Source of the DNA: a virus
Reading direction: 5' to 3' (one strand)
Length of the DNA stretch: 64,000 nucleotides
Virus record (IMG/VR): IMGVR_UViG_3300042314_001189
Coordinates: 73,445-137,444 of that record
Shown: positions 24,751 to 25,428 of the stretch, one piece after another
Layout of the letters: every line of letters starts with the position of its first letter
Position numbering within the stretch: the first letter of the stretch is position 1
The notes under the pieces: model-generated
What the model was told of the DNA's origin: nothing
Seen by the model: the letters and a program-made list of their open reading frames with translations, nothing else
The model's database searches: none
Made by a program: the position numbers and the translations under genes

Positions 24751-25428
24751 ATGGAAAAAGTAATTTTAGAAATTCGTGATGCTGAAGGCGGTGCCGATGC
24801 AAAGCTGTTGGTTGGTGAAATGAAAGACATTTACATCAAGACAGCAAAAAACAATAACCTTAACTGACTGATAGTCGAAGAAAGGGAAGGATTTGTCGTG
24901 ATGTGACTAACTGGTCATAATGTCAAAAAAATCTTTAAGAACGAAGTCGGTAATCACCGATGGCAACGAATACCACCAACCGAAAGAAAAGGTAGGGTTC
25001 ATACTAGTTCAATAACAGTAGCAATTTTAGAGGAAAACGAATATAAGGAAGTAGAATTACAACCTAATGAATATCGTTTGGAAACAACCCGTGGTACGGG
25101 TAACGGTGGTCAACATAAGAACACCACAGATTCATGTGTGGTGGTCACACACATGGCTACTGGCATCAAAGTAGTTCGAGATGGTAGAAATCAACACAAG
25201 AACAAAGAAGATGCGTTAAAAGAGCTTAAAACACGTGTGAATAAATTTTATCGCACTGGTCATATAGAAGAATCTGTTGAAGAACGAAGAGACCAAATAG
25301 GTAAAGGTGAAAGAAGTGATAAACGTAGAACGTATCGTGTGAAAGACGCTATTGTTATTGACCATATAACCAATAAGACTGTAAGTTTGAAAGATATTTT
25401 AAAAGGTAAGATAGAATTATTTGCATAA
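24751..25428 (+). CDS. RF1-like peptide chain release factor lacking domain 1, with two in-frame UGA codons
   Basis: MEKVILEIRDAEGG...NNNLN*LIVE...VVM*LTG...HRWQRIPPTERKGRVHTSS...GNGGQHKNTTDS...RSDKRRTY; TGA at 24865-24867 and 24904-24906. Confidence 0.85.

Follow-up and report, generated by a model that had tools for sequence, protein, structure and literature searches.

The release-factor gene and its two in-frame stops

A release-factor gene was found at 24751-25428 (+) in a 64,000-nucleotide stretch of viral DNA, positions 73,445 to 137,444 of IMG/VR virus record IMGVR_UViG_3300042314_001189; this whole stretch is called the window below. The gene is a single RF1-type frame of 225 codons, which starts with ATG at 24751 and terminates with TAA at 25426-25428. 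Only two stops exist inside it, one is TGA at codon 39 and another is TGA at codon 52, and frame 0 is kept throughout with no frameshift. An earlier reading made from the letters alone (the sequence-only reading) had described it as an RF1-like frame from this ATG broken just by the TGAs at 24865 and 24904, and translation confirmed this. In the list of open reading frames (ORFs) under table 11, the gene appeared as two pieces, 24751-24867 (38 aa) and 25078-25428 (116 aa, with a TTG start and containing GGQ). The features of the gene were as follows.

24751..25428, + strand: RF1-type class I release factor gene without domain 1; the full reading requires two UGA codons to be decoded
24865..24867, + strand: first in-frame TGA, codon 39, context AAC TGA CTG
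24904..24906, + strand: second in-frame TGA, codon 52, context ATG TGA CTA
24973..24981, + strand: PPT (CCA CCA ACC), RF1-type PxT stop-codon recognition tripeptide, codons 75-77
25105..25113, + strand: GGQ (GGT GGT CAA), peptidyl-tRNA hydrolysis motif, codons 119-121

PxT is the tripeptide of RF1 stop recognition and GGQ is the motif of hydrolysis, and both PPT and GGQ were invariant in 18/18 rows of alignment A1. The read-through protein matched the Pfam families PCRF (PF03462, 66.4 bits, 3.9e-18) and RF-1 (PF00472, 81.3 bits, 6.6e-23), both above the cut-offs. With the NCBIfam prfA models TIGR00019 and NF001859 it scored 204.6 and 193.3 bits; the equivalog cut-offs of 400 and 423 were not reached because only model positions of about 105-332 were matched (105-332 of 347 and 113-340 of 361, respectively), and this confinement means that domain 1 is absent from the gene. 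The RF1 models scored far higher than those of prfB (108 bits), PrfH (73 bits) and ArfB (23 bits). Among solved structures, T. maritima RF1 could be aligned to the protein over its residues 86-314 (E = 8e-42). Both the RF1 type with its PxT and GGQ motifs and the missing domain 1, as proposed in the sequence-only reading, were borne out by these matches, by which the window protein is domains 2-4 of an RF1-type factor without domain 1. Peptide release at UAA and UAG, and none at UGA, is predicted for this factor, because PxT and the flanking HR.QR...E...R.HTS residues are common to solved RF1 chains.

In an AlphaFold model (pLDDT 74), codon 39 starts the strand 38-44, which is the second beta-strand of domain 2, and the matching residue in E. 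coli and T. maritima RF1 is V/L. Codon 52 falls within the strand 48-55, the third beta-strand of domain 2. The possibility that codon 39 is the conserved Trp column of RF1 was rejected, since the HMMER alignment places that Trp at L37 of the query. In some relatives this Trp column holds TGA.

Relatives and forms of the stop gate

A tblastn search of phage records gave top matches of 43-47% identity in six uncultured huge-phage genomes. Among the five huge-phage loci with a readable frame (L001-L005), four carry one or two in-frame TGAs in this part of the gene and L005 carries none, and the 50 kb around each of the four TGA-gated loci was standard-coded. With profile A1, IMG/VR yielded 352 relatives and the GTDB genome contigs 106, of which the best 80 from each source were used. 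In total 166 loci were classified, with the frames of the N- and C-terminal parts assigned by local alignment in three frames. L006 (a match in two pieces, with many stops) was left out, together with L011-L014 and L016-L031, which are the same contigs as L032 onward with shorter flanks; identical C-terminal parts occur in 12 of the 166 loci.

A stop gate, that is an internal stop at query codons 37-54, was present in 155 of the 166 loci, and the other 11 had no internal stop. Such recurrence of stops in the same 15-codon stretch is beyond chance. It is conserved across sequences of 40-84% identity to the window gene, and the gate could be crossed in frame or through a shift, in the following forms.

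In frame, one TGA: 38 loci
In frame, two TGA, the window included: 25 loci
In frame, TGA and TAG: 3 loci
In frame, one TAG: 3 loci
In frame, TAG and TAA: 1 locus
No internal stop: 11 loci
+1 shift, CTT TGA C: 38 loci
+1 shift, CTT TAG C: 33 loci
+1 shift, CTT TGA G: 7 loci
+1 shift, CTT TGA A: 2 loci
+1 shift, CTT TAG G: 2 loci
+1 shift, CTT TAA C: 1 locus
+1 shift, AAC TGA A, doubtful: 1 locus
+2 case, doubtful: 1 locus

The +1-shift loci total 84, with CTT directly 5' of the stop in 83. UAG stands in place of UGA at 35 of the +1 shift sites (CTT TAG) and in 7 loci with in-frame TAG. In-frame stops occupy columns 37, 38/39, 44, 46-48 and 51/52, and shift sites occupy columns 38, 48 and 53/54. 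The column of codon 39 is TGA in at least 20 relatives, and within the family the gate stands most often at the column of codon 52. In high-GC relatives GGAGG lies 3-4 nt before CTT, which makes a complete prfB architecture. The shifted low-GC relatives closest to the window (L046, L048, L052) lack the GGAGG element and have TAG as their stop. A tree built from the C-terminal part showed the gate types thoroughly mixed and the ungated members scattered; this interspersion means that the gate persists and its form is labile. Pseudomonas phage Y1 (H72) was considered as a cultured carrier and rejected, as its record, which is unverified, contains an ordinary RF2 with SPF.

Selection on the gene and on the context of the stops

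Contigs from other runs which cover the gene (X3, X7 and X9) were identical to the window over 24751-25043, so both TGAs were kept in the contigs of three other lake runs, and the concern about assembly error raised in the sequence-only reading could be set aside. In the other-run contigs 19 differences were listed inside the gene, 14 of them at third codon positions. When the window was compared with its 8 closest relatives by the Nei-Gojobori method, dN/dS (omega) was 0.19-0.28 for codons 1-51, and 0.06-0.13 for codons 53-225 in 7/8 pairs with estimable dS. The 5' and 3' parts had pooled pN/pS values of 0.36 and 0.32, respectively.

These values bear on the view that internal initiation yields just the C-terminal GGQ part as an ArfB-like functional product, with the 5' part a decaying remnant. 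The 116-aa ORF at 25078-25428 with its TTG start and internal GGQ would suit such a product, and a weak ArfB match was found (22.6 bits, cut-off 100). However, omega of about 0.2 in the 5' part, the frame maintained across both TGAs in 25/25 double-TGA loci, and the invariant PPT and domain-2 residues speak against it, which makes it very improbable.

The base 3' of the in-frame TGA was A in 42, C in 35, G in 2 and T in 0 cases (n = 79, from 57 unique genes; these counts are not phylogenetically independent), and the first-codon-position background in the same comparison was A 0.365, C 0.169, G 0.339 and T 0.127. Leu after TGA was encoded by CTN in 35/35 cases, compared with 420/744 at the other positions of these genes (Fisher p = 4e-9, no phylogenetic correction). 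Stops in the contexts UGA-C and UGA-A are weak or can be suppressed. The weak context ascribed to the two window stops in the sequence-only reading recurs at the in-frame TGAs of the relatives, with A or C following in 77/79 cases and T in none. Such a bias reflects selection at synonymous sites on the TGA-N tetranucleotide, which would be expected under a tuned competition between release factor and tRNA.

Two premature stops under the standard code could be taken as the mark of a pseudogene, or of an assembly or sequencing error. This is already contradicted by the independent assemblies, the conservation at 40-84% identity, the purifying selection and the selected context, and it has practically no probability left.

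It could also be supposed that the UGAs encode selenocysteine, in view of the Cys codons (TGT/TGC) which the nearest frameshift-type relatives have at both of the window's TGA columns. But the gate columns vary, and a column which is TGA in some relatives is TAG in L053-L055; the gate positions are structural beta-strand sites; no conserved, SECIS-like hairpin was found 3' of either UGA (z = -1.78), and a hairpin around the second TGA was not conserved among relatives. The probability of selenocysteine is likewise negligible.

At the level of sequence comparison, the gate is real, conserved, selected in its context and flanked by coding sequence under selection. Programmed recoding as such is very probable, and the programmed readthrough expected in the sequence-only reading is well supported by the stops conserved in 155/166 loci, the purifying selection on both sides of them (omega about 0.2 on the 5' side) and the selected context.

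Genome, genetic code and host

The IMG/VR record which holds the window (G000) is one contig of 137,444 bp with 32% G+C, and was estimated by CheckV as 39% complete. The relatives of its clade are 306-362 kb in size (86-100% complete), so G000 is a fragment of a jumbo phage. The runs containing this stretch were lake-water metagenomes from many studies.

The table-11 coverage of G000 by ORFs of 100 aa or more is 0.88. The 107 ORFs of at least 150 aa end in TAA (87), TGA (14) and TAG (6), hence TAA is the commonest stop, as had been said from the sequence alone. Other genes of the window also end in TGA: when table 11 was compared with table 4, six window ORFs differed, each only by a short 3' extension. 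A scan of the whole record for ORFs requiring TGA or TAG as sense gave only the release-factor gene as a convincing case, and two other + strand candidates were rejected as off-frame shadows of real genes. The relatives G001 and G003 are also standard-coded with a table-11 coverage of 0.89. The record uses the standard code, and the earlier statement that recoding is not genome-wide was correct.

In G000 the next in-frame TAA or TAG lay at a median of 10 after terminal TGA and 10.5 after TAA (p = 0.25), with no excess of back-up stops, and ten non-overlapped ORFs terminate at TGA. In G001 and G003 the next in-frame TAA or TAG was nearer after TGA than after TAA (4 vs 10, p = 2e-4; 5 vs 11, p = 7e-5). 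This comparison is confounded because ATGA start-stop overlaps dominate: A precedes 17/22 terminal TGAs in G001 and 26/40 in G003, mostly in such overlaps.

The motif TAnnTTTG was enriched in the window (160 occurrences vs 110 ± 8 in shuffles), and TACCTTTG was found 10-30 nt 5' of many starts and tRNA blocks (for instance at 22669, 28180, 36560, 38747, 42185, 45834, 59994, 61266 and 63320). TAnnTTTG motifs are the promoter type of Bacteroidota, and their enrichment suggests that the host of the phage is a standard-code member of Bacteroidota.

tRNAs that could read UGA

A total of 24 tRNAs were found by ARAGORN in the window and G000, none with the anticodon tca, and the Rfam tRNA model gave 26 matches on G000. 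No UCA anticodon was present in the flanks (up to 4 kb on each side) of the 166 loci. When G000, four complete huge-phage genomes and five IMG/VR relatives were scanned for the pattern TTCAR with a T-loop, no credible UCA tRNA emerged. Running ARAGORN on the whole of G001 (86% complete, with the double TGA) and G003 (96%, with a TGA and TAG gate) gave no credible UCA tRNA either, so a TCA-anticodon tRNA, for which the sequence-only reading had suggested a search elsewhere in the genome, was not found in the 137 kb of the record (39% of the phage), G001 or G003. Although the gene of G003 must pass both UGA and UAG, its 22 tRNAs include no suppressor of any kind. The phage tRNA-Trp has C11-G24 and lacks A24, which is the mark of the Hirsh suppressor tRNA-Trp.

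Two candidates were rejected. One is a class II tRNA at 33363-33444, which follows tRNA-Trp, has the loop CUUGAAA, was missed by ARAGORN, and matched the Rfam tRNA-Sec model below the cut-off (32.8 bits); it is Ser(UGA)-like and reads UCA codons, so it could not serve as a UGA suppressor. Another is the 'SeC(tca)' call of ARAGORN at G001:C1:239866-239941 (L228 1466-1541), which is a register artefact. This Glu-like tRNA (CCACCCTTTCAAGGTG) has the anticodon UUC, or UCA in a worse register, and its orthologue in G002 was called Glu(ttc).

Trp is read in at UGA in E. coli, B. subtilis and Qbeta. Near-cognate decoding, with Trp for UGA, in competition with the host release factor is the most economical reading.

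The contrary view holds that UGA is efficiently sense, through a dedicated phage or host suppressor tRNA or in a UGA-sense host (table 4 or 25), and that the gate works as a timer or a host-code switch. The record covers just 39% of the genome, and TGA stands at the conserved RF1 Trp column in some relatives. Stop-recoded phages with suppressor tRNA and release-factor modules are known (10.1101/2021.08.26.457843), and phages compatible with code 11 have been predicted on code-25 hosts (PMC10746230). This view has difficulty with the lack of a UCA anticodon in G000, the 166 loci, G001 and G003, with the ten non-overlapped G000 ORFs that end in TGA with no excess of back-up stops, and with the CTT TGA C shift sites of close relatives, which require slow UGA decoding. 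The TAnnTTTG enrichment also suggests a standard-code Bacteroidota host. Efficient sense decoding of UGA is quite unlikely.

Several unusual tRNAs were observed in the course of these searches. Glu-like tRNAs in multiple copies with six-base anticodon loops (UUUUCA/UAUUCA) occur in LR756504.1 (L199, L207, L214, L216) and LR756502.1 (L201, L205). One phage, of 636 kb, has no fewer than 8 copies arranged as tandem pairs, and another has 2 or more; ARAGORN assigns two-base anticodons to them. A tRNA with an eight-base anticodon loop ('ccta' by ARAGORN) lies in an IMG/VR relative at L023 1493-1569, 1.5 kb 5' of a TGA+TGA-gated gene. In the IMG/VR relatives L013, L017, L018, L021 and L022, a tRNA-Cys(GCA) with a CCGCAAN loop (C33) is located about 0.7-1.7 kb 3' of tRNA(CUA); U is nearly universal at tRNA position 33.

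Gene neighbourhood

On the + strand, the gene is preceded by DnaJ, a metallopeptidase, ClpP, transfer-messenger RNA (tmRNA), two tRNA(CAU) and a terminator-like hairpin, in this order, and followed by three small unknown ORFs, tRNA(CUA), an FKBP isomerase, a sigma factor and a CCA-adding enzyme. The positions of the elements near the gene were as follows.

19824-20849: DnaJ gene
21908..22633, + strand: ClpP protease gene
22750..23103, + strand: phage tmRNA gene (Rfam RF00023, 66.7 bits, cut-off 47), missed by ARAGORN
24318..24390, + strand: tRNA-Met(CAU), the first of two directly upstream, with synteny kept in relatives
24449..24520, + strand: second tRNA(CAU), a weak tRNA-model match (27.1 bits)
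24695..24728, + strand: terminator-like hairpin (10 pairs) and T-run, ending about 23 nt before the ATG
26565..26636, + strand: tRNA(CUA), an amber suppressor whose 7-nt anticodon loop is normal (CUCUAAA), located 1.1 kb downstream

A consensus scan gave no TACCTTTG-type promoter motif between the hairpin at 24695-24728 and the release-factor gene. The tmRNA, ClpP and DnaJ look like a phage block for proteostasis and ribosome rescue. tmRNA is upstream of the release-factor gene in relatives too, and the order tmRNA, tRNA-Met, release factor, tRNA(CUA) recurs among them. Within 4 kb of the gene, tRNA(CUA) was present in 13/25 double-TGA, 1/38 single-TGA, 3/35 TAG-shift and 0/49 TGA-shift loci.

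An RF1-type factor terminates at UAG, the codon read by tRNA(CUA), so the two should oppose each other. A read-through gate made of UAG would open to the phage's own suppressor, which may be why UGA is used in the window's clade. Similarity to other tRNAs gave no amino-acid identity for tRNA(CUA), and no gene with an in-frame TAG was found in G000 despite this tRNA; TAG ends 6/107 long ORFs.

A tRNA-like element at 24606-24688 had no tRNA-model match at E < 1. It has a GGTTCAATCC T-arm and apparently belongs to the TTCAGCAA/AAACTA non-coding RNA family, of which another copy at 24163-24222 matches an unrelated Rfam model. The terminator-like hairpin which comes after this element is a strong one.

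Proposed mechanism

The gene could encode a functional short RF1-type factor whose synthesis depends on poor UGA termination through a programmed double UGA read-through, and we regard this as somewhat probable. Ribosomes from 24751 would encounter UGA at codons 39 and 52. If RF2 acts at UGA, a fragment of 38 or 51 residues would be released, and if a near-cognate tRNA, most likely tRNA-Trp, decodes UGA first, translation would continue in frame. The output would then follow about the square of UGA read-through, and be higher when RF2 termination is slow or saturated. The product would add termination capacity at UAA, the stop of 87/107 long ORFs, and at UAG, and would oppose the phage's own amber-suppressor tRNA. 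What we infer here is the identity of the tRNA at UGA, the response to the level of RF2, which codons the product recognises and what it does. The sensor of RF2 scarcity suggested in the sequence-only reading is plausible; under that suggestion, two stops would sharpen the response.

Several points weigh against this mechanism. Typical bacterial read-through has an efficiency of a few percent, hence two successive read-throughs would give very little protein, and an unseen helper may exist. No conserved RNA structure was found at the gate, the fold of 24850-24990 having z = -1.78. Any feedback would be indirect, since a UGA gate is not one that a product of RF1 type can itself close. The contig X17 from an RNA library spans 24795-24996 with both TGAs, and may be DNA carry-over. 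The negative result for UCA tRNAs is incomplete for the window phage, of which 61% of the genome is missing. In relatives gated by UAG or by UGA and UAG, RF2 would not be the sole quantity sensed; these relatives suggest that the family senses termination capacity broadly rather than RF2 alone.

The gate might instead be a constitutive throttle with no sensing, which keeps a potentially harmful factor without domain 1 at a very low fixed level. The gate is near-universal, yet its stop (UGA, UAG and once UAA) and its mechanism are interchangeable, which fits 'any strong attenuator', and unregulated overproduction of RF2 is reported to be toxic in B. subtilis (PMC12421855). However, a weak start site or promoter would be a cheaper attenuation, the prfB-type site carried by 83 relatives is known to respond to release-factor level, and the selected A or C 3' of TGA indicates a tuned competition with the release factor. 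A fixed throttle is rather unlikely.

The gene may belong to a self-contained module for stop-codon management in jumbo phages of standard-code hosts, composed of the amber-suppressor tRNA, the stop-gated RF1-type factor and tmRNA/ClpP, in which the release-factor gene is a cross-sensor. This wider proposal is tentative, with a low probability. Under it, RF2 scarcity would open the gate, and the product would take over UAA and UAG and rein in the phage suppressor. The phage would actively set which stops terminate at each stage of infection, and the swaps among UGA, UAG, read-through and +1 shift would be a sensor retuned to different hosts.

Comparison with known systems

The internal UGA of prfB is the textbook case of programmed frameshifting, and a 2025 survey states that RF1 genes have no comparable demonstrated case: programmed frameshifting was shown for prfB and not prfA, 34 unconvincing prfA pseudogenes were listed among 12,753 genomes, and TAG was not observed to serve as the early stop of the prfB frameshift motif (PMC12421855). 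Huge-phage genes include RF1, RF2 and tmRNA, with no internal stops mentioned in the portion of Al-Shayeb et al. consulted. Full-text searches of the literature gave no description of a stop-gated phage release factor. The family described here is of RF1 type, extends over hundreds of phage and metagenome contigs, and is almost always internally stop-gated. It forms a natural series, read-through vs +1 shift and UGA vs UAG, for what decides between read-through and shifting, and it bears on how phages sense and adjust the termination capacity of the host and on what a domain-1-less release factor does. Stop-gated genes are divided into pieces or overlooked by standard gene callers, and phage release factors are under-counted as a result.

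PrfH is also a short class I release-factor homologue with GGQ and without domain 1. Unlike PrfH (TIGR03072), the window protein keeps the PxT codon-reading motif, and it scored 72.6 bits against a cut-off of 166.65; the PDB chains of PrfH gave 1.9e-11 and 2.6e-10, compared with 1e-42 for RF1. No RtcB, with which PrfH pairs, was matched among the 10 neighbouring ORFs scanned.

With the modules of stop-recoded phages, composed of suppressor tRNA, aminoacyl-tRNA synthetase and RF1/RF2, the locus shares a phage class I release factor beside a suppressor tRNA. Those code-change modules are themselves standard-coded, but the genomes which they serve have the recoded stop in abundance in their late genes, as described by Borges et al. 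(10.1101/2021.08.26.457843). In contrast, the window genome is standard-coded and its release-factor gene alone has internal stops, and the neighbouring suppressor reads UAG, a codon terminated by RF1-type factors.

In Qbeta, the UGA of the coat gene is read through by tRNA-Trp and the A1 protein is produced. The window gene resembles it as a phage gene with a leaky in-frame UGA, continued in the zero frame presumably by a near-cognate tRNA. Qbeta has a single stop with two functional products at a fixed ratio, whereas the window gene has two stops within a folded domain, its terminated product would be a fragment of 38 or 51 residues, and it encodes a termination factor.

The gene can also be compared with prfB, likewise a class I release-factor gene with an early in-frame stop in a weak context, so that the full length needs a failure of termination. 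The site of prfB, with a Shine-Dalgarno element, a 3-nt spacing and CUU UGA C, has its heptamer of the CUU-stop-C type in 83 relatives of the window gene, and shifting of prfB without the Shine-Dalgarno element is reported at about 7% in Flavobacterium johnsoniae (PMC10798248). The window gene differs in having two stops and no frame change, with no CUU before its TGAs (AAC TGA and ATG TGA) and no GGAGG-like run 3-6 nt upstream. The stop of prfB is at codon 26 in domain 1, whereas the stops of the window gene are in domain 2, at codons 39 and 52 of a protein without domain 1. As an RF1-type factor should not read UGA, the window gene would be an instance of cross-regulation rather than of the autoregulation known from prfB.

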